64,000 bases of DNA, taken from contig OX597814.1 in NCBI GenBank assembly GCA_951406725.2, forward strand, positions 128,898,001 to 128,962,000. The letters are read 5' to 3'. Shown one piece after another: positions 16,051 to 54,865 of the stretch (position 1 is its first letter; every line of letters starts with the position of its first letter). Below the pieces are notes generated by a model. That model was not told where the DNA came from. It did no database searches and saw nothing but the letters and a program-made list of their open reading frames with translations. This DNA comes from Octopus vulgaris (lineage: Eukaryota). The position numbers and the translations under genes are program-made.

Positions 16051-17760
16051 TTAAATATGAGAAATTGAGGAAATGAATGTAGAATACATATTGCAAGATA
16101 GAATCTGAGAATAAGGCAGTGTATCAGTGTGTATATAAAACATACACACACACACTAGTCTGCCTAGGAAAGTGGTACTTTAGTCATATATCCACTATAC
16201 CTCCCTCATAGACTATATTGTATTTTGGACAGATTTCTGTCAGAAAGAAAGAAAAAGTGGGGGAAGAGAGGTTGTGTGAAGTAGATTGAAGTTAATTGTG
16301 GTGAGGTGAGTGGGGAGATAAACGAGATGAGATGAGTTAAGGAGAGGTGAACTGATGAGGTGGGATGGAATTAGATGGGAATGTATGTGAGCAAGAATGA
16401 AGTTCAGTGAAGTGTAGGAAGAGGGAGATATAAGTGTTCCTCGTATTGTCTTGGCACATATTTCTTCAAAATCTTATTTCATGATGAGTCTATTCATAGC
16501 TTTAAATTGATTTCTTTCACGATGTAAAACCATCTTGAAGGCAACGTGAGCTCTCGCTGTTTGTCTCAATTGATGATAGCCAAAAATAAAATAGTTGTAA
16601 CAGATTAGTATCTACTTCATTTACTGTTAATATCTTACACATTTACACTCATGTGTACTTACAAACATGCATGTACACTTGCACATACTTCCACACAAAG
16701 CTGTCTCTCTCTATAAATATGTATATGCAATGTTATGCATTTTCAAATACTGTCAGTTCATAAGTCTCTCTTTCAACTTTATATCTTGTATTGAGTTCTT
16801 CATTTAGTTTTTGAATATGAACAATTTACCTAATACATGTATGTATGTGTGTAAGAGAAAAGTGAATGCTTTTATAATGCTAAAATCTGGTTGTTTGGAT
16901 TCGTCTTATGTCACATTCCTGGCAAAAATGTCTAATTCTTTCTACAAACTTCCTTTCAAATTTAATCATGTGTCTTAAGGTAAATAATATTATTTATTTT
17001 AATCTCAGTTTATGAAAACATTGCAAGTGATATGTATCAAACTAGCGCGCGTGCGTATAAAATATGACGGACTCTCCTGTCAAAAACATGATTATTCAGC
17101 TTTTGCCAAATGACCTGCATAAATGATTTGTATATAGTGATAAAATGTATATGCCATACATTAGCTTACTTTCTCCGTCAAATTAACATAGCCTGAAGAG
17201 GTGCATGGTGTACATTATGTCATGTGTTGAAGTGACAGTAGAGCAAAGTGTGATGAAGTGTTTTGCTCAAGAACACAATGCACCACTGGTTTAGGAATTG
17301 AAACCATGGTCCCGTAATCGTGAGTTCAACATCCTAACTATTAGGTCATACATAATCATTATTCTAACACCCATTTTTCCATACTTGCATGGGTTGGATG
17401 GAGGTAGATTTTCTATGGCTGGATACCCTTCCTGTAGACGACCCTTATCTGTTTCCAAGCAGGGTAATATTTCCCTATGGTCATACTTGTTTTTGCAGAA
17501 TACTGGAAATTAGTGATAGTCATATACACCAATCATGGGATGTCAAGATGAGGAGACACTCTCACACATACACATATATAAGTGTTCCTCGCTGTTGTTC
17601 CTTCGAGGTGACCCCGCCCTCCCTCCCACCCATCCACCAGAACCGGAAGTTTCTGTTTTCTATCTTTCTTGACCCCCCCCGCACCCCTATGTAGGGTTTA
17701 TTGTGATCATATAGCGCAAAAACTGTGAAATTTATGCAGGTTGTAGTCTAGAGTCTCAGT

Positions 17761-20700
17761 ATGATATCTGGCAAATGCAAGCTTTCTTTTCAGGTACATA
17801 ACACTGCTGTCCCTCATCCCAGGGTCTCAGAGGCCCACACCTCCCACACCCTCAACGTTGGCACGCTGAAAGGTAGGTCTGGCGAGATAGTCGAGATGCT
17901 TGAACGGAGACGTGTTGATGTATGTTGTATGCAAGAAATAAGGTGGAGAGGAGGATCTGCTAGGGTCCTCACAGGCAAGGAACACAGGTACAAGATTTTC
18001 TGGGCAGGGAACACTGACGGGGTTGGTGGCGTGGGTATACTTATCGCTGAGAAATGGATAGATAGAGTAATTGAGGTAATCAGAGTAAGTGACAGAATAC
18101 TTAAGATTAGAATAGTGCTTCATAATAGATTAGCAACCATTATATCGGCCTATGCCCCTCAGCCAGGGCTACCCGATGGACAGAAAGACAGTTTCTATGA
18201 CACCCTACTGCAGACCACCTCATCGACGAACGACAGGGACCTTCTCTTTGTGGCTGGTGATTTCAATGGGCATGTTGGACGACATGCTGGGGGCTTCCAT
18301 GGCGTACATGGAGGCTACGGTTATGGTTCCCGCAACGAGGAGGGAACCAGGCTGCTGGAGTTCTGCGATGCGAATAGTCTTATGGTCTGCAACACTAACT
18401 TCAGGAAACCAACAAGCCACCTGGTCACCTACCGATCGGGCCGGCATACTAGCCAAATCGACTACATCCTTGCCAGAAAAAGGGAAAGATGGCTGCTTAT
18501 AAATGCCAAAACCTTCCCAGGCGAAGAATGCACCCCACAACATAGACTGGTAGTTAGTGACTTTAGGATCAGGACTAAGAGGGCGACTAGAAGACGACCA
18601 ACATGGAGAAGAAGGGTCTGGAAGCTTAAAGCCCCTGCGAATGGACAGAGATTTAGAGATATGTTACTTGAAGCCTTTGACGAAGTGGAAGGGGGTATAG
18701 CTACACATGGGGTAGAAGACAACTGGACGTTTCTGAGGGACAACCTGCTGAAAGCCGCTGACCAGATCTGTGGCTGGTGCAAAGTCCCCTTAAGACCCAA
18801 AATAACGTGGTGGTGGAACAATATTGTTGACAGGGCTATTAGACAAAAGAAACAGGCTTGGAAGGCCTGGAAGAACGGTGGTAGCAGGGAAGGGTATCAG
18901 ACTGCCAGAAGGGAAGCTAGGAGACAGGTCTATCTAGCCAGAGGGGAAGCAGATAAGAGAAAATTTGCCAATGTCCTGCGCCGTGAGGATGAAAGACTTG
19001 AGGTATTTCGTGTTGCAAGACAGTGTGTGAGAGAGAATCGTGATGTGGTAGGAGAGAAATGTGTTCGCATGGAGGATGGTTCACTTGCGCTAAATGAGGA
19101 TGCAAAGAGAGAAGCTTGGAGATGCCACTATGAAAGGTTACTGAATGAGGAAAATGAATGGGATAAAGAGAGTCTGCCGAATGTTGACCCTACAGAGGGA
19201 CCAGCTATCCGAGTTGATAGTTCCGTGGTAGCTAAGGCAATTAGAAGCATGAAGACAGGGAAAGCCCCAGGCCCATCAGGAATTACTGCAGAGATGCTCA
19301 AAATATCTGGCAGTGTCGGCTATAACCTAGTCACCCGTATAGTCAACCAGGTGATACACGAAGGAGTCATACCCAATGACTGGTGCAGCAGCATACTAGT
19401 CAACTGCTACAAAGGTAAAGGTGATGCCCTAGATACAAATAATTACAGAGGTATCAAGCTGTTGGATCAAGTAATGAAGGTTACGGAGAGGGTCATAGCC
19501 CAACTAATTAGAGAGAGAGTTAGTTTAGATGAGATGCAGTTTGGGTTCGTGCCAGGGAAAAGTACCACTGATGCTATATTCCTGGTAAGGCAGCTGCAGG
19601 AGAAATACCTAGCCAAAGATAAGCCCCTGTACCTGGCTTTCGTTGACATGGAGAAAGCTTTTGATAGGGTCCCCCGATCCCTTATCTGGTGGTCAATGAG
19701 GAAACTAGGGATAGATGAATGGCTGGTGAGGACTGTGCAAGCCATGTACAGAGATGCCGTAAGTAAGGTTAGGGTTGGCAACATGTACACAGAAGAATTC
19801 AAAGTAGAGGTTGGGGTCCACCAGGGTTCAGTACTCAGCCCCCTCCTATTTATCATAGTACTCCAGGCAATTACGGAGGAATTCAAGACAGGCTGTCCCT
19901 GGGAGCTCCTCTACGCTGACGACCTTGCTCTTATTGCTGAGTCACTATCAGAACTGGAGGAGAAGTTCCAGGTGTGGAAGGAGGGTTTAGAATCAAGGGG
20001 CCTTAGAGTCAACCTAGCTAAAACCAAAGTACTAATAAGTAGAAAGGTAGACAATCCACAAATATCTTCAGGAAGATGGCCCTGCTCGATCTGTAGAAAA
20101 GGTGTAGGTAGAAACTCTATAAGATGTACCCAGTGTAAGCTATGGACACATAAGAGGTGCAGCAATGTCAAAGGTAGGCTAACTGGGAAGATAGTTTTTG
20201 TATGTGGCAGATGCTCGGGAGCATTAACCTCCGAAAATCTGCAGAAAACAACTTCCGTCACTTTCCAGGGGGAAAAACTAGAAGTAGTTGATAGCTTCCG
20301 TTATCTAGGTGACCAAGTCAGTAGTGGGGGTGGGTGCGCTGAAAGTGTAACTGCTAGAATAAGAATAGCCTGGGCAAAGTTTAGGGAGCTCTTACCTCTG
20401 CTGGTGACTAAAGGCCTCTCGCTCAGAGTAAAAGGCAGACTGTATGATGCGTGTGTACGAACAGCCATGCTACATGGCAGCGAAACATGGGCCGTGACTG
20501 CTGAGGACATGCGTAAGCTCGTGAGGAATGAAGCCAGTATGCTCCGATGGATGTGTAATGTCAGTGTACATACTCGACAGAGCGTTAGCACCTTGAGAGA
20601 AATGTTGTACCTAAGAAGCATCAGTTGTGGTGTGCAAGAGAGACGATTGCGCTGGTATGGTCATGTGGCGAGAATGGATGAAGATAGGTGTGTGAGAAAG

Positions 20701-20868
20701 TGCCAATCCCTAGCAGTTGAGGGAACCCGTGGAAGAGGTAGACCCAGGAAAACCTGGGACGAGGTGGTGAAGCACGACCTTCGAACTTTAGGCCTCACTG
20801 AGGAAATCACCAGAGACCGAGACCTTTGGAAATATTCTGTACGTGAGAAGACCAGGCAGGACAAGTGA
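17761..20868 (+). CDS. LINE polyprotein: APE-type endonuclease + reverse transcriptase with inserted PHD-like zinc finger
   Basis: EN motifs TLNVGTL, MQEIRW, SAYAPQ, AGDFNGHVG, SQIDYIL, PQHRLV. RT motifs KAPGPSGI, NYRGIKLL, QFGF, FVDMEKAFDRV, GVHQGSVLSPLLF, YADD, FRYLG. RTE-type C-terminus RRLRWYGHV..RGRGRPRKTW. Start codon uncertain. Confidence 0.95.
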   Translation: MISGKCKLSFQVHNTAVPHPRVSEAHTSHTLNVGTLKGRSGEIVEMLERRRVDVCCMQEIRWRGGSARVLTGKEHRYKIFWAGNTDGVGGVGILIAEKWIDRVIEVIRVSDRILKIRIVLHNRLATIISAYAPQPGLPDGQKDSFYDTLLQTTSSTNDRDLLFVAGDFNGHVGRHAGGFHGVHGGYGYGSRNEEGTRLLEFCDANSLMVCNTNFRKPTSHLVTYRSGRHTSQIDYILARKRERWLLINAKTFPGEECTPQHRLVVSDFRIRTKRATRRRPTWRRRVWKLKAPANGQRFRDMLLEAFDEVEGGIATHGVEDNWTFLRDNLLKAADQICGWCKVPLRPKITWWWNNIVDRAIRQKKQAWKAWKNGGSREGYQTARREARRQVYLARGEADKRKFANVLRREDERLEVFRVARQCVRENRDVVGEKCVRMEDGSLALNEDAKREAWRCHYERLLNEENEWDKESLPNVDPTEGPAIRVDSSVVAKAIRSMKTGKAPGPSGITAEMLKISGSVGYNLVTRIVNQVIHEGVIPNDWCSSILVNCYKGKGDALDTNNYRGIKLLDQVMKVTERVIAQLIRERVSLDEMQFGFVPGKSTTDAIFLVRQLQEKYLAKDKPLYLAFVDMEKAFDRVPRSLIWWSMRKLGIDEWLVRTVQAMYRDAVSKVRVGNMYTEEFKVEVGVHQGSVLSPLLFIIVLQAITEEFKTGCPWELLYADDLALIAESLSELEEKFQVWKEGLESRGLRVNLAKTKVLISRKVDNPQISSGRWPCSICRKGVGRNSIRCTQCKLWTHKRCSNVKGRLTGKIVFVCGRCSGALTSENLQKTTSVTFQGEKLEVVDSFRYLGDQVSSGGGCAESVTARIRIAWAKFRELLPLLVTKGLSLRVKGRLYDACVRTAMLHGSETWAVTAEDMRKLVRNEASMLRWMCNVSVHTRQSVSTLREMLYLRSISCGVQERRLRWYGHVARMDEDRCVRKCQSLAVEGTRGRGRPRKTWDEVVKHDLRTLGLTEEITRDRDLWKYSVREKTRQDK

Positions 20869-20953
20869 GCCCAGCCCACTTATGAATGCCTTTCCTCCCT
20901 TGGACACAAAGACCGGTTGAGGCAAGCGAAGTCGATATAGAACCTCATCCGAC

Positions 20954-21405
20954 GACAGACACCCATGCCAACCCCCCATGCTTGCGAAGACATGTTGGGG
21001 CAAGCGAAATCGAAATCGAAACCGAATTGAACCAGCCAGGATCCCTGGCCTGGTGGTACGTAAAAAGCACTATCCGACTCGTGGCCGTGGCACGTAAAAT
21101 ACTCCAATGCAACCGTACGACAGGCACCCATGCCAACCCCCTTTGCTTGTGAAGACATGTTGGGGCAAGCGAAATCGAAATCAAATTGAACCAGCCAGGA
21201 TCCCTGGTCTGGTGGTACGTAAAAAGCACTATCCGACTCGTGGCCGTGGCACGTAAAATACCCCAATGCGACCGTATGACAGGCACCCTTGCCAACCCCC
21301 TTTGCTTGTGAAGACATGTTGGGGCAAGCGAAATCGAAATCGAATTGAACCAGCCAGGATCCCTGGTCTGGTGGTACGTAAAAAGCACTATCCGACTCGT
21401 GGCCG
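20954..21405 (+). repeat. Tandem repeat in LINE 3' UTR, about 160-165 bp x 2.8
   Basis: Units start at 20954, 21119 and 21278 (gacaggcacccatgccaacccc...gaagacatgttggggcaagcgaaatcgaaatc...). Confidence 0.93.
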
Positions 21406-23217: not shown

Positions 23218-23634
23218 AAGGCGGTGAGCTGGCAGAAACTTTAACATGCCTGGCGAAATGCATAGCGGTATTTCGTCTGCTGCTACATTCTGAGTTCAAA
23301 TTCCGCCGAGGTCAACTTTGCCTTTCATCCTTTCGGGGTCGATTAAATAAGTACCAGTTACGCACTGGGGTTGATGTAATCGACTTAATCCATGTGTCTG
23401 TCCTTGTTTGTCCCCTCTGTGTTTAGCCCCTTGTGGGTAGTAAAGAAATAGGTATTTCATCTGCTGCTACATTCTGAGTTCAAATTCCACCGAGGTCAAT
23501 TTTGCCTTTCATCCTTTCAGGGTCGATTAAATAAGTACCAGTTATGCACTGGGGTTGATATAATTGACTTAATCCGTTTGTCCATCCTTGTTTGTCCCGT
23601 CTGTGTGTAGCCCCTTGTGGGCAGTAAAGAAATA
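23218..23634 (+). mobile_element. SINE family B dimer inserted in a family A-type SINE
   Basis: Junction aagaaata|ggtatttcatctgc at about 23450; TSD agaaactgt(a/g)tg. Confidence 0.88.
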
Positions 23635-31323: not shown

Positions 31324-31921
31324 AAGGTGACAAGGTAGCAGAAACGTTAGTACGCCGGGCAAAATGCTTGGCAGTATTTTGCCTGCCACTACGTTCTGAG
31401 TTCAAATTCCTCTGAGGTCAACTTTGCCTTTCATTCTTTCAGGGTTGATTAAATAAATACCAGTTACGCACTGGGGTCAATGTAATCGACTTAATCCGTT
31501 TGTCTGTCCTTGTTTGTCCTCTCTGTGTTTAGCTCCTTTTGGGTAGTAAAGAAATAGGTATTTCGTTTGCTGTTACATTCTGAGTTGAAATTCCATTGAG
31601 GTTGACTTTGCCTTTCATCCTTTCGGGGTTGATTAAAAAAAGTACCAGTTATGCGCTGGGGTCGATGTAATCGATTTAGTCTCTTTGTCCTTGTTTGTCC
31701 CTTCCATGTTTAGCCCCTTATGGGTAGTAAAGAAATAGGTATTTCATCTGCCATTACGTTCTGAGTTCAAATTCTGCTGAGGTTGACTTTGGCTTTCATC
31801 CTTTCGGGGTCGATAAATTAAGTACCAGTTATGCACTGGGATCGATATAATCAACTTAATCCCTTTGTCTCTCTTTGTTTGTCCCCTCTATGTTTAGCCC
31901 CTTGTGGGCAATAAAGAAATA
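31324..31921 (+). mobile_element. SINE family B trimer inserted in a family A-type SINE
   Basis: Junctions at about 31557 and 31737; TSD agaaactgaaagaa(g/a)cct. Confidence 0.88.
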
Positions 31922-40465: not shown

Positions 40466-40882
40466 AAGGCAGTGAGCTGGCAGAATTGTTAGCACACCAG
40501 GCGAAATGCTTAATGGTATTTCGTCTGCCATTAGGTTCTGAGTTCAAATTCTGCCGAGGTCAACTTTGCCTTTCATCCTTTCGGGGTCGATAAATTAAGT
40601 CCCAGTTACCCACTGGGGTCGATGTAATCGACTTAATCCGTTTGTCTGTCTTTGTTTGTCCTCTCTGTGTTTAGCCCCTTGTGGGTAGTAAAGAAATAGG
40701 TATTTCGTCTGCTGTTACATTCTGAGTTCAAATTCCGCTGAGGTCGACTTTGCCTTTCATCCTTTCGGGGTTGATAAATTAAGTAGCAGTTGCACACTGG
40801 GGTTGATGTAATCGACTTATTCCCTTTGTCTATCCTTGTTTGTCCCCTCTATGTTTAGCCACTTGTGGGCAATAAAGAAATA
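40466..40882 (+). mobile_element. SINE family B dimer
   Basis: Junction aagaaata|ggtatttcgtctgc at about 40698. Confidence 0.88.
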
Positions 40883-43560: not shown

Positions 43561-45050
43561 AAAAGTCTATCTTTATTTCTTCTTTTACTGGTGTCTCAAA
43601 TTTAGGTTAAATCAGTGTTTCTCAAAGGGGAGGCCTATGGGACGCAGTATGTCACCATTTGTCATCTCTTTCATGAGTCTCAAATTCTTGGAATTAGTCT
43701 TCATCACTTCATTACATTTCTTGTTTGGTCTCACTCTTGTACAAGTTCTATCCACAATACCACACATAGTATTTCCTTCTGGATACTACATCCGATTCTT
43801 TTATATCCAACTTTTCTCTCAGCTTAATCGTGTTCTGTCATCTCTTACACCTTCAACAGAGTATTCAAGGTTATGTGGAGCAGAAATAACCCCACCCCTG
43901 TCTAGGATGACAGCATATTACAAACACCCATATCAATCATGATGTAGACCTATGACAAAAAACATTCAAACCTGTATTATCTCATTCTTTTAGTTTTTGG
44001 TTGGGTGGAAGATATTTTAAGCTACATTATCTTATGTACCCTGTTCTTTTTTCTTTTTTTTAAGATAAGGTGTGATTTGAAGGAGATTAGGTTGCTATTT
44101 CTAAAAGTTTGAATAACCGCATAGAAGCTCAGCTCCATCATAATGTTGTAAAGTGATATGGTGCATAACACCCTCCAGCAATTTAAACTGATGCAATGCA
44201 GAGTGGTGTGTTTTGCTCAGAATCACCAGTCTCGGTTCTGACACTTGTATTCACATACCAGTTGATTGAAATCTCATGTATTGATGACACTGGTCTAATT
44301 TTAAAAGTAACGAAATGAAACAGAATAAAAATAATCATCTGTAGCATTATTGGTTATGTCTGTGAATACATATATGTATATATGTGTGTTTATATTGACT
44401 AACTGACCAATCAATAAAACCTATACAAAGATTTGATGTTGTGGAGTATATATGACTTCAGGGCGAGATGTTTTGAGGAACTCACATATAAATCTTATTA
44501 ACAAATAGTCGACGTGTTTTATAAAAGTGACACTTGAAAATTACTTCTGGCCAAGCAAAAGCTGACAGTCTTGAACAGTTTCATAGATCAGATGAAAAAT
44601 ATATTTAAAAGCTAAAAAATTTACAAAAATTGTATACAGAAATGAACAATTGCATATAAAAACGGTTGTGTGGTAAGAAATTCGTTTTGCAACAATGTGG
44701 TTCTGAGTTCACTCTCCTTGTATGGCACTTTGGGCAGTTTAGCATCTTTTACTAGTGCCATAGGCCAACCGAAACATTGTACAAAGCCCATTGTAGATTT
44801 GTGAAAATGTTTACTTTCAGCAATCATATGAACTTTGATCAGTGTTCTTCATTGCTTTTTTTCTATCAACAATTTGTTCTGTAGCTCTGTGGTTTTGAAG
44901 ATGAGCAGATAAAGGTTAGTAGTTGAAAAAGCTGTAAAATACAATTTCTGTATTTATCCAATTCATGCTAGCATAGAAAGAAATGGCATAAAATATCAAA
45001 TTTGTGCACACATACACATGTGTGTATGTATAATATATATATATATATAT

Positions 45051-45366
45051 TTGAAAAAGTGTAGGTGGCATACAAGTAGGTATATATTTATAAAAAAGAA
45101 ATTTGAAAACACCACTATATAAGATAAATTTAATTTTCTTAGAGATTTTACATGTTTCGGTTCTTATTGAATAAACAAACCTTATCAAAAATATTTTAAA
45201 AAGTTAAGTTTAATAAAAAAGTTCATAATTGTTTCTTACTAGTCTCAACAGAGTCCACGTGGTGGTATTTTGTGGGGGAAAGCATAATGGCTGTCTTGTG
45301 CATTGACTAGAATCGTTGACTGTAATCATGAAGGTGACTGTTGGTTGTAATAGCAGCTGTAGCAGA

Positions 45367-45368
<2 letters not shown>
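45051..45368 (-). mobile_element. Insertion between (TA)n tracts with decayed minimal hammerhead (PLE remnant)
   Basis: 45145-45192 on the minus strand reads attt-TTGATAA-ggtt...aacc-GAAA-CATG-TA-aaat: palindromic stem III and two core substitutions. Confidence 0.45.
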
Positions 45369-48639: not shown

Positions 48640-48882
48640 TCTCTTTACTCTCTTACTTGTTTCTGTCATTTGGCTGCGGCCATGCTGGAGCACCACCTTT
48701 AGTTGAGCAAATCGACCCCAGGATTTATTCTTTGTAAGCCTAGTACTTATTCTATCTGTCGCTTTGGTCGAACCGCTAAGTTACGGGGGACGTAAACACA
48801 CCAGCATCAGCTGTCAAGCAATGTTGGGGGGACAAACACAGACACACAAATTCACACACACACACACACACACACACATGTG

Positions 48883-48914
<32 letters not shown>

Positions 48915-49073
48915 ATGGGCTTCTTTCAGTTTCTGTCAACAAAATCCACTCACAAAGCTTTGGTCGGCCCGAGACTATAGTAGAAGACACTTGCCCAAGG
49001 TGCCATGCAGTGGGACAGAACTCAGAACCATGTGGATGATAAGCAAGCTACTTACCACACAGCCACTCCTGCA
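48640..49073 (-). mobile_element. SINE family A
   Basis: Full-length homology to family A. Confidence 0.9.
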
Positions 49074-49375
49074 CCAATCTAAATTTTATATAAAAACTTC
49101 TCAATTCTTTTTAATATAGAACCAAGGAAATTTGGGAGGGATAAGTAATGAATTACATCCCTAGTATTCAACTGCAACAGAATTTGAATTCAGAATGTAA
49201 AAGTGGACAAAATAGGCATAGGAGTGGCTGTGTGATAAGTAGCTCGCTTACGAACCACATGGTTCTGGGTTCAGTCCCACTGCATGGCACCTTGGGCAAG
49301 TGTCTTCTACTATAGCCTTAGGCCGATCAAAGCCTTGTGAGGGGATTTAGTAGATGGAAACTGAAAGATGCCTGT

Positions 49376-49408
<33 letters not shown>

Positions 49409-49566
49409 TATATATGGATAGGCGTAGGAGTGGCTGTGTGGTAAGTAGCATGGTTCTGGGTTCAGTCCCACTGCGTGTCTTCTACTATAGCCTTGGGCCG
49501 ACCAAAGCCTTGTGAGTGGATTTTGTAGACGGAAACTGAAAGAAGCCCGTTGTGTGTGTATATATA

Positions 49567-50401
49567 TAAGAAAAAGGGACAGGCAAAACAAGTTGCTTGA
49601 CCGCATACCGAAAAAATAGAAATAGCAGTCAAGAATGCTTATTTCTATCAAAGTTGGACTCCGGGCATGACAGACCCTGTAATTCACATATGCAAAACAG
49701 AAGGAATAGATAACGAATACGAAGTCTGGCGGTTATCTGTGAACATCATGTTTCTGGATTATAAACATATTGAATATATATTCCATATATATTCCATATA
49801 TTTTTTCACTCCCTTTGACAACCTATTTTTGTAATGCGCATGGCAGAATTTTTGGAGGGAAGATTTATGAATTCAAACGTCTATGTAGATTTAGCCTTTG
49901 CTCACTCTCTTCAAATATTTTGATGTTGCATGGTCGGAAGGTTTGAGGTACGTAGCATTTGATAAATCTATGATAAATCTTTTTCAATGGAAAGCTGTGC
50001 TGAAGAAGGATGTGAAATATATATGCAATATATATGAAATATATTTCAAAAATATATGGAATATATATTCAATATGTTTATAATCCAGAAACATGATGTT
50101 CACAGATAACCGCCAGACTTCGTATTCGTTATCTATTCCTTCTGTTTTGCATATGTGAATTACAGGGTCTGTCATGCCCGGAGTCCAACTTTGATAGAAA
50201 TAAGCATTCTTGACTGCTATTTCTATTTTTTCGGTATGCGGTCAAGCAACCTGTTTTGCCTGTCCCTTTTTCTTATATACAATATATATACTGAACTTTA
50301 CAGAAGTTCCTGCCGGTAATCGGCTATATTTACATACCGAATTCTACCAGTAAATAATTGGGGTTTTTTTAAAAGCCTTTATAGAAATTATTTACTCTTA
50401 T

Positions 50402-50405
<4 letters not shown>
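49567..50405 (+). mobile_element. Fold-back element in (TA)n, probable Penelope-like (PLE)/retrozyme-type insertion
   Basis: 228-bp inverted arms 49563-49790 / 50052-50279 with one mismatch seen, about 260-bp spacer, about 125-bp unpaired tail. It splits the TA microsatellite of a SINE and contains a hammerhead-like motif. Structure is clear; PLE assignment is inferred. Confidence 0.7.
49995..50105 (+). ncRNA. Putative type I hammerhead ribozyme
   Basis: Stem I ctgtg(49995)/cacag(50101); core CTGAAGA; stem II ggat/atcc with an A.A pair at its base and a long AT-rich loop; GAAA; short palindromic stem III catgatg; GUU cleavage triplet ending at 50100. Confidence 0.6.
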
Positions 50406-50451
<46 letters not shown>

Positions 50452-50758
50452 ATATGTTTGGGTGTCTGTGTTTGTCCCCCCAACATCGCTTGACAACTGA
50501 TGCTGGTGTGTTTATGTCCCCCGTAACTTAGTGGTTTGGCAAAAGAGAACTGATAGAATAAGTACTAGGCTTACAAAGAATAAGTCCTGGGGTCGATATG
50601 CTCGACTAAAGGCAGTGCTCCAGCATGGCCACAGTTAAATGACTGAAACAATAAAAAAAAAAGAGTCAAAAAGAAAATTACTAAAGCCTTTTGTCTGCAA
50701 AATGCTGCTAAAGCATTTTGTCTGGTGCAGTATTGATCCTGTCAGCTTATTACTTTAA

Positions 50759-54131: not shown

Positions 54132-54865
54132 CAGTCAACTCTCGCTACTATGCCACCCTGCGAGACTGAGCCAAAGTGGCATAGTACCGAGGGTCTGTTA
54201 TCTAAACACTACATAACCAAAAATTTACTGAACATACGAATAAAAATTCATAGGGTAGGAAGTAAGGCCAATAAGAAGTTCAATGCAATGGTAAAAAGAA
54301 GACATCCAAGTTTATTAAGTTCAGATTGCTTTTAATTAATCCCGAAGCTCTCAAAAATTGTCGGCTGACGCATCTTCTTTCGGCGGATTTCATTTATTTC
54401 GTTGTCTAGCCTATCACACGCCTGCATGACGCTGGGTTTTCCGCTGCTCTGCTGCTGCATAAACTTTCGGATAGTGCTCCATGCTCTCTGGGCATCTGCA
54501 AACGAAACGTATTCCTCTTCCACAATTACCTTGTCGTCTTCACTTTCCACTGGCTCTTCGTTATGCATTACCTCCTTTGCTATTTCTTCTAGAGTGAAAG
54601 ATCCTCCAGTTACGAGGCGATCGTCAGCACTGAGAAAATCAAACAGCTCAATTGTTTTGTTCTCATGTGTCTTTTCCTTGTGAGGTAAAGCTTTCTGAGC
54701 TGACATTGTGTGCTACTTTCTGAACTTTTCCACAAGATTACAAATACGAAATGTACAAAATGTAGGAGTACAAAATTTCGAAAAGTTGCGTGCGCTTCAG
54801 TTTACAAGTGGCATAGTAGAGATAGTGGCATAGTAGCGAGGTGGCATAGTAGCGAGAGTTGACTG
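54132..54865 (-). mobile_element. Non-autonomous Tigger/pogo-like DNA transposon (734 bp)
   Basis: TIRs cagtcaactctcgctactatgccacc / ggtggcatagtagcgagagttgactg, TA TSD, empty-site paralog at about 52564, subterminal gtggcatagtag repeats. Confidence 0.9.
54332..54706 (-). pseudogene. C-terminal remnant of Tigger/pogo (TIGD/CENP-B-like) transposase
   Basis: Peptide DFLSADDRL..TLEEIAKEV..acidic stretch..VSFADAQRAW..KMRQPTIFESF resembles pogo-family C-termini; lies inside the TIRs; no DDE domain. Confidence 0.7.

Follow-up and report, generated by a model that had tools for sequence, protein, structure and literature searches.

Results

The Insert Lies in the TA Tract of a SINE

The window analyzed here, a stretch of 64,000 nucleotides of Octopus vulgaris DNA, is AT-rich (36.8% GC) and microsatellite-rich and contains numerous copies of one SINE. 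One copy, which we take to resemble an octopus SINE, is interrupted by the insert that is our subject. On the plus strand, its 5′ part, which is the target and lies outside the element, runs from 49418 to 49562 (the start is that of repeat family D9, and 49475-49561 has 18 blastn matches in the window, including itself). Beyond the insert come a (TA)15.5 tract at 50405-50435, detected by Tandem Repeats Finder, and a TG tract with the 3′ part of the SINE at 50436-50651, which has ten full-length matches in the window with 86.5-91.6% identity. The two SINE halves around the insert are 878 nt apart. By comparison, for 10 of the 17 matches of the left half elsewhere in the window, the right half follows at a distance of -10 to 52 nt beyond a TA/TG tract, so that these represent empty sites. 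These 10 copies without insert bear out the claim of a first-pass annotation of this DNA that the element had inserted into the TA tract of a SINE. Directly upstream of the host SINE (49418-49561, 50436-50651) lies a partial tandem duplicate of it, with an inverted copy farther up (48657-49070, 49212-49393), and the insert is nested in a larger, imperfect SINE-SINE fold-back that is 80-90% complementary.

Other repeats and reading frames are found in the window. An unbroken ORF of 1038 aa on the plus strand (17752-20868), with an endonuclease (PF03372), a reverse transcriptase (RT) (PF00078), and a weak PHD-like finger, is apparently an intact LINE judging from its sequence, presumably of the RTE type. 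It is bracketed by an inverted pair of ~94% identity (17404-17591/21843-22032), and another pair of ~94% identity is found at 51068-51295/60520-60747. Four short tandem arrays, at 20952-21405, 23267-23634, 31383-31921, and 40515-40882, have periods of 159-184 nt, and the three of 181-184 nt have a common unit. On the minus strand, 54332-54712 is an open frame of 126 aa with no Pfam match above cut-off, which we assume to resemble the C-terminal end of a pogo/Tigger-type transposase.

The Insert Has Inverted Arms and a One-Sided Tail

The left arm of the insert, at 49563-49790, is the reverse complement of 50052-50279 over 228 nt with a single mismatch (49591/50251), as near-perfect as had been claimed. 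Three inverted pairs of at least 80 nt and at least 93% identity exist in the window, and the 49563/50279 pair is the only one above 94%. Ungapped pairing of the arms extends to 243 nt with 97.5% identity (49563-49805 versus 50037-50279). Because the left arm contains one additional 11-nt repeat unit in its innermost 15 nt, its inner junction can be placed at ~49805/49806, equivalent to ~50048. The left arm as a whole (49563-49805, minus strand, defined by inverted-repeat comparison) is an inverted, 5′-truncated, tail-less second copy, whose outer 6-7 nt are TA letters common with the target and whose inner end bears the 3′ half of a hammerhead motif together with the extra 11-nt unit. The direct copy is truncated at 49806 and begins with a unique upstream part (49806-49994, plus strand), a putative 3′ untranslated region (UTR) or pseudo-LTR (pLTR), which is single-copy in the window, negative in protein searches, and folds no better than its shuffles. 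Farther down, the portion that the left arm duplicates (50048-50279, plus strand, from the arm comparison) terminates in TCTT and a short internal TA stretch, the putative first priming site. The insert then ends with a tail of ~125 nt on this side only (50280-50404, plus strand), which terminates in TCTT ahead of the TA tract, the putative second priming site. This tail had been described as unpaired; nothing in the left arm does pair with it, but it has structure of its own, folding into local hairpins (z -2.4, with 3/200 and 5/200 shuffles folding equally well in two runs). The hairpins may mark a protein-binding or start region. Element GC content is 33%.

Read in element sense, TCTT precedes TA at both outer ends of the insert, and a short TA run at the left end is also present in the internal TA stretch at ~50273-50279. 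A target-site duplication is unreadable inside the TA tract. The insert contains no long direct repeat, and therefore no direct pLTR or partial tandem, which is optional for truncated copies of Penelope-like elements (PLEs); head-to-tail repeats of the unit, as expected of a retrozyme, are likewise absent from this locus.

The layout, called a fold-back element in the first-pass annotation, is the published layout of PLE insertions (PMC8557442) rather than a kind of its own. These insertions are 5′-truncated, often with an inverted 5′-truncated copy at the 5′ end (Penelope-13_HM is annotated with one in File S1 of that work) and a tail of 30-40 bp at one end (PMC8557442). The insert shows both features, although its one-sided tail of ~125 nt exceeds the published 30-40. 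The arms might also have arisen in two steps, a simple PLE fragment coming first and the inverted arm being added later, when the AT-rich palindrome in stem II of the hammerhead was locally repaired or served as the site of snap-back synthesis. The inner junction does fall within the self-complementary 11-nt repeat and the arms are one unit apart, which fits such a history and indicates that the stem II repeat tract is unstable. However, the outer end of the left arm coincides with an internal TA stretch and is joined cleanly to the TA of the target, as a second priming predicts, and this layout is common among PLEs (PMC8557442). We regard later addition of the arm as very improbable.

The insertion appears young. 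The arms diverge at 1 of 228 nt (95% interval, 0.01-2.4%) versus 8-14% between full-length SINE halves. With the octopus calibration of 0.09 at 25 million years (PMC13282606), its age would be ~0.6 million years and at most ~3.4, provided that the arms have not been homogenized. In O. vulgaris, 31 recently active Penelope-like families have been reported (PMC13282606).

A Type I Hammerhead Motif with an Unusual Stem II

A type I hammerhead motif, found by descriptor and fold, spans 49995-50105 on the plus strand, with a predicted cut after 50100 (GUU). It displays CUGANGA, GAAA, and NUH in order, three helices, and an open stem I. Stem I has 5 bp (49995-49999 with 50101-50105), and the core strands are CUGAAGA (50000-50006) and GAAA (50088-50091), the two core halves being 81 nt apart. 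Stem II has 4 bp (50008-50011 with 50083-50086) and encloses a loop of 71 nt (50012-50082, plus strand), while stem III consists of 3-4 bp within a 9-nt near-palindromic region that is followed by GUU. The loop is a minisatellite of period 11 with 5.1-5.5 copies according to Tandem Repeats Finder, that is, about five imperfect AT-rich units predicted to fold back as a long, irregular hairpin. The base of stem II is A·A (50007/50087) rather than the G10.1-C11.1 pair. The motif agrees with the published description of hammerheads that have a short palindromic stem III and lie in a terminal repeat (PMC4209133).

The lowest-energy fold of 49985-50115 has the hammerhead topology (z -2.81, 1/200 shuffles). 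With the observed stem lengths, a hammerhead descriptor matches 0/2000 shuffles of the element and 1/60 block-shuffled whole windows, rising to 6/2000 and 10/60, respectively, when relaxed; because the descriptor was written after the motif had been seen, these chance rates flatter the motif. Two more matches from the relaxed scan, with spacers of 106 and 141 nt, were taken as chance. Fold and shuffles therefore uphold the complete hammerhead topology that had been proposed at 49995-50105, and the arm comparison confirms that the inverted arm copies its 3′ half only. Stem II is indeed unusual, as had also been claimed: A·A occurs in 0/25 of the published Hydra-clade families, and the loop has 71 nt versus 3-10. 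One check suggested by the first-pass annotation, a search with hammerhead models, gave a different answer, since Rfam returned no hammerhead on the element at gathering score nor up to E = 10, the best match being a biased miRNA hairpin far under the cut-off. The 71-nt loop is the likely cause of this miss.

Another minimal motif resembling a type I hammerhead, unrelated to the first, is found on the minus strand at 45145-45192. Its core shows the U3/A8 covariation, its stem II starts from a G-C pair, and its stem III is a palindrome of 6 nt; the 320-nt segment around it (45049-45368) has TA tracts on both sides. A descriptor tuned after the fact matches 1/200 shuffled windows, and its folding is at shuffle level. 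This segment, which has no significant similarity to the main element, is probably an older PLE fragment.

Arms and motif together bear on another origin, in which a fold-back or long terminal inverted repeat (TIR) DNA transposon (49570-50272) inserted at TA, with the hammerhead present by chance or captured and the tail unrelated. The near-perfect inverted arms of 228 nt, each terminating at TA letters, are what recommends it. Yet the inner edge of the arm splits the hammerhead, a motif that is rare by chance; 125 nt of non-SINE sequence separate the right arm from the resumed TA tract, meaning that the inverted repeats are not terminal; and no transposase-like frame was found when six frames of the element were compared with Pfam. 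We regard a DNA transposon as very improbable.

Predicted Folding of the Hammerhead Depends on Its Context

For RNAs of different extents, we computed the fraction of molecules in which the three stems are all formed and the core is open (the hammerhead-fold share). When the left arm is left out, the motif by itself reaches a share of 0.06, compared with 0.005 once ~20 nt of flank are added and 1e-6 for 49950-50150; the share is 0.0008 for 49806-50110 and 0.016 for the monomer, whichever 3′ end it has. Including the left arm lowers the monomer values to about 1e-42 and 1e-50, in line with the earlier claim that the antisense arm blocks folding in read-through RNA. In this model, the hammerhead fold is thus fragile and context-dependent even without the left arm, which counts against our preferred explanation below. 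Two copies are predicted to co-fold as a double hammerhead sharing stem III, at -60.6 kcal/mol versus -50.0 for two monomers; the ribozyme would probably fold best as a dimer, via its near-palindromic stem III, and be slow alone. At the present locus, the model suggests that the hammerhead at 49995-50105 is probably a passive relic, and in a plus-strand transcript entering from the left, the arms would form a long duplex instead of the hammerhead. A near-perfect duplex of 228 bp in a host transcript would be a likely substrate for A-to-I editing or silencing.

Coding Remnants, Related Sequences, and Public Reads

Six frames of the element matched 0 Pfam families, with no RT or GIY-YIG endonuclease remnant in its 599 nt. 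The search with a 46-aa frame of the element gave no protein match, while the sole match of a 34-aa frame, to a bacterial repeat protein (P0001), is due to chance. A likeness of 49808-49900 to a PLE RT motif, noticed by eye, is unsupported by Pfam (six frames) and by the searches with the 46- and 34-aa frames. An ORF with RT and GIY-YIG would not be expected in a copy as short as 599 nt.

No second copy of the element exists in the 64-kb window. In collections not aimed at animals, a 20-nt word of the element has 0 matches in viral contigs and a 22-nt word has 0 in prokaryote genomes; the 20-nt word has 1 match in metagenomes, a contig (L001) that agrees with the 3′ half of the hammerhead over 25 nt (521-545) but shows no further similarity and was dismissed as chance. 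Five words of 12-14 nt are absent from the published file of Naiad, Chlamys, and Hydra consensuses (PMC8557442), in which words crossing line ends would escape such a search. Among the matches listed, 19/24 public sequencing runs contain, in assembled contigs, at least half of the sampled words of the element, and some part of these words occurs in 20 rows from 9 studies, 10 of which (3 studies) are guessed to be RNA, for a query that included both arms and cannot tell alleles of the present locus from other copies. Five rows with a small or zero share of the words were set aside. The word content is compatible with a young, possibly transcribed family.

The first-pass annotation had read the insert as a non-coding, self-cleaving retroelement. 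On this reading, it would be a dedicated, non-autonomous, retrozyme-like hammerhead retroelement, mobilized by PLE enzymes through the same insertion mechanism from a parent that encodes nothing. The lack of any coding trace in 599 nt agrees with this, as do the published non-autonomous PLE derivatives (bioRxiv 10.64898/2026.07.22.740005; PMC8557442) and the public runs (19/24 with at least half of the words, 10 guessed to be RNA). Against it, there is no head-to-tail unit at the locus, and the 71-nt loop misfits classical retrozymes with contacts between loops 1 and 2 (PMC7229834). Moreover, the 189 nt upstream of the hammerhead are too short to exclude an ORF, because the two coral Hydra consensuses have their stop ~175-240 nt before the core when inspected by eye (PMC8557442). 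We keep a non-coding parent as a possible reading but a less likely one than a coding parent.

Discussion

The Insert as the Probable 3′ End of a Penelope-Like Element

We favor the explanation, to which we assign a probability of roughly 55%, that the insert is the 3′ end (3′ UTR or pLTR) of an endonuclease-bearing PLE that recently inserted into the (TA)n of a SINE. That it derives from a PLE in one way or another, whether through this route, through a non-coding parent, or through an arm added later, is very probable. Most likely, the hammerhead is the pLTR ribozyme of the parent element. From its sequence, its style seems nearest that of Hydra-clade PLEs, although the clade itself is unproven. 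A (TA)n target together with a canonical-type hammerhead, the combination seen in the Hydra clade and found here, is not exclusive to that clade. The tail of ~125 nt, the 71-nt loop, and A·A count against the favored explanation. So do the negative searches, which gave no RT or GIY-YIG remnant in the frames compared, no second copy in the window, and none of the five words in the published consensus file, and so does the unreadable target-site duplication. Much of the earlier interpretation stands, namely a young, RNA-derived, Penelope-type insertion in a TA microsatellite carrying a hammerhead with an odd stem II. That the insert is a dedicated non-coding, self-cleaving element does not follow, because the 189 nt upstream are also expected from the 3′ UTR of a truncated coding PLE and because there is no tandem unit.

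From the observed layout, target, and hammerhead fold, we infer the following mechanism. The GIY-YIG endonuclease/RT of the element would nick both strands of the TA tract. One nick would prime reverse transcription at the distal RNA site (~50404), so that tail, hammerhead, and upstream sequence are copied as far as 49806. The other nick would prime on what is probably a second RNA molecule, at the internal TA stretch (~50273-50279), and synthesis of this cDNA would stall near 50048, where stem II forms its AT-rich hairpin. Joining of the two cDNA ends would then leave the 5′ end with an inverted copy that has no tail, the tail being confined to the other end. Two priming events from opposite nicks of the TA tract are suggested by the fact that both ends are TCTT-TA and that the left end matches the internal TA stretch. 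Since the target SINE has many empty copies nearby, both ends of the insert can be read, making it a clean natural case of a two-start-site, two-strand PLE insertion product.

A bolder proposition, which we hold only tentatively and consider doubtful, is that the insert belongs to an active, expressed, and undescribed PLE or PLE-derived non-coding family, each copy of which has an AT-rich minisatellite hairpin with a variable number of units in stem II. If true, ribozymes with such long loops would evade Rfam and the published descriptors (core spacer of 7-17 nt, "half cores" 35-50 nt apart), and therefore some PLE lineages scored as ribozyme-less could have working ones. The stem II hairpin would also be a stall or switch site that yields fold-back insertions and long double-stranded RNA. 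Should the long stem II be family-wide and the ribozymes cleave, PLE hammerheads would be undercounted by standard searches, which bears on the half cores of Naiads. Our literature search, limited in range and outside Repbase, Dfam, and the octopus repeat library, found no account of this element family and no PLE hammerhead whose loop is a minisatellite of 70 nt.

Comparison with Known Systems

Animal non-LTR retrozymes resemble the insert in their type I hammerhead, AT-richness (33% GC here), lack of coding trace, and relation to PLEs (PMC7229834; bioRxiv 10.64898/2026.07.22.740005). Unlike them, the insert has no tandem unit at its locus, and its hammerhead is of the PLE type rather than canonical. 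Classical retrozymes are described as tandem, with units of 170-400 nt and canonical hammerheads with loop 1-loop 2 contacts (PMC7229834), and a 2026 preprint reports retrozyme units of 51-972 bp, many of them monomers, derived from PLEs (bioRxiv 10.64898/2026.07.22.740005). PLE hammerheads, in turn, are described as minimal ribozymes whose stem III is palindromic, whose activity is low even in the dimeric form, and which occur in pairs on opposite strands 100-700 bp apart (Cervera and de la Peña, PMC4209133); a review concurs on the dimers (PMC6765202). A precedent for a long loop 2 is offered by the PLE-X1 hammerheads of spike moss, with ~29 and 35 nt, which are flagged as deviating (PMC8557442, File S2). 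These loops are half as long as that of the insert and are not shown as a repeat tract, and the elements are endonuclease-less, rDNA-targeting plant elements.

Naiad PLEs share with the insert a (TA)n target (in 3/3 octopus families), inverted copies, and tails (PMC8557442). In contrast to the insert, they are described there as lacking canonical hammerheads and, in cephalopods, as old remnants, and the published 3′ ends of octopus Naiads show no likeness to it by eye. Some Naiads have split cores 35-50 nt apart, annotated as "HHR_half_core" (PMC8557442).

For the proposed mechanism, the relevant system is the PLE protein PAc (Poseidon, Anolis), a predicted dimer that cuts and extends both strands and favors AT-rich DNA (PMC11167929). 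Its reverse transcription starts at two internal RNA sites whose spacing equals the tail, and hammerhead cleavage is not required in vitro (PMC11167929). The two start sites with a one-sided tail, use of both strands, an AT-rich target, and a pLTR hammerhead would, on our reading, all have their counterpart in the insert. Two differences are that the PAc ORF begins in stem II, whereas the insert has no ORF after its hammerhead, and that PAc primes without target homology, whereas both ends of the insert adjoin TA letters common with the target.

The closest match is with Hydra-clade PLEs, for which the following counts were made by eye from the published tables (PMC8557442). A (TA)n preference is found in 26/27 families. 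Among 25 hammerheads, 19 have a 9-nt stem III region, 10 have U at the cut, and 4 have an A7 core; positions 10.1/11.1 are unpaired in 15/25 (14 U·U, 1 U·C, and A·A 0/25), and loop 2 has 3-10 nt in all 25. At this position, U·U occurs naturally and is the mismatch that hammerheads tolerate best (Perreault et al., PMC3088659). The clade itself is defined by its protein, through RT and endonuclease motifs DKT, RWK, and CxCX5C without CCHH (PMC8557442). The insert departs from these PLEs by its 71-nt loop 2 instead of 3-10 nt, its A·A instead of U·U or U·C, and its tail of ~125 nt; it also has no ORF in which the protein motifs that define the clade could be read, and no word match to the published consensus file. 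The (TA)n target and an inverted 5′-truncated copy at the 5′ end are common to both. So is a type I hammerhead close to the 3′ end, in which stem III is near-palindromic over 9 nt, stem II is unpaired at its base, and the cut is at U, as it often is in the clade. The architecture, the target, and the ribozyme class of the insert are all already published.
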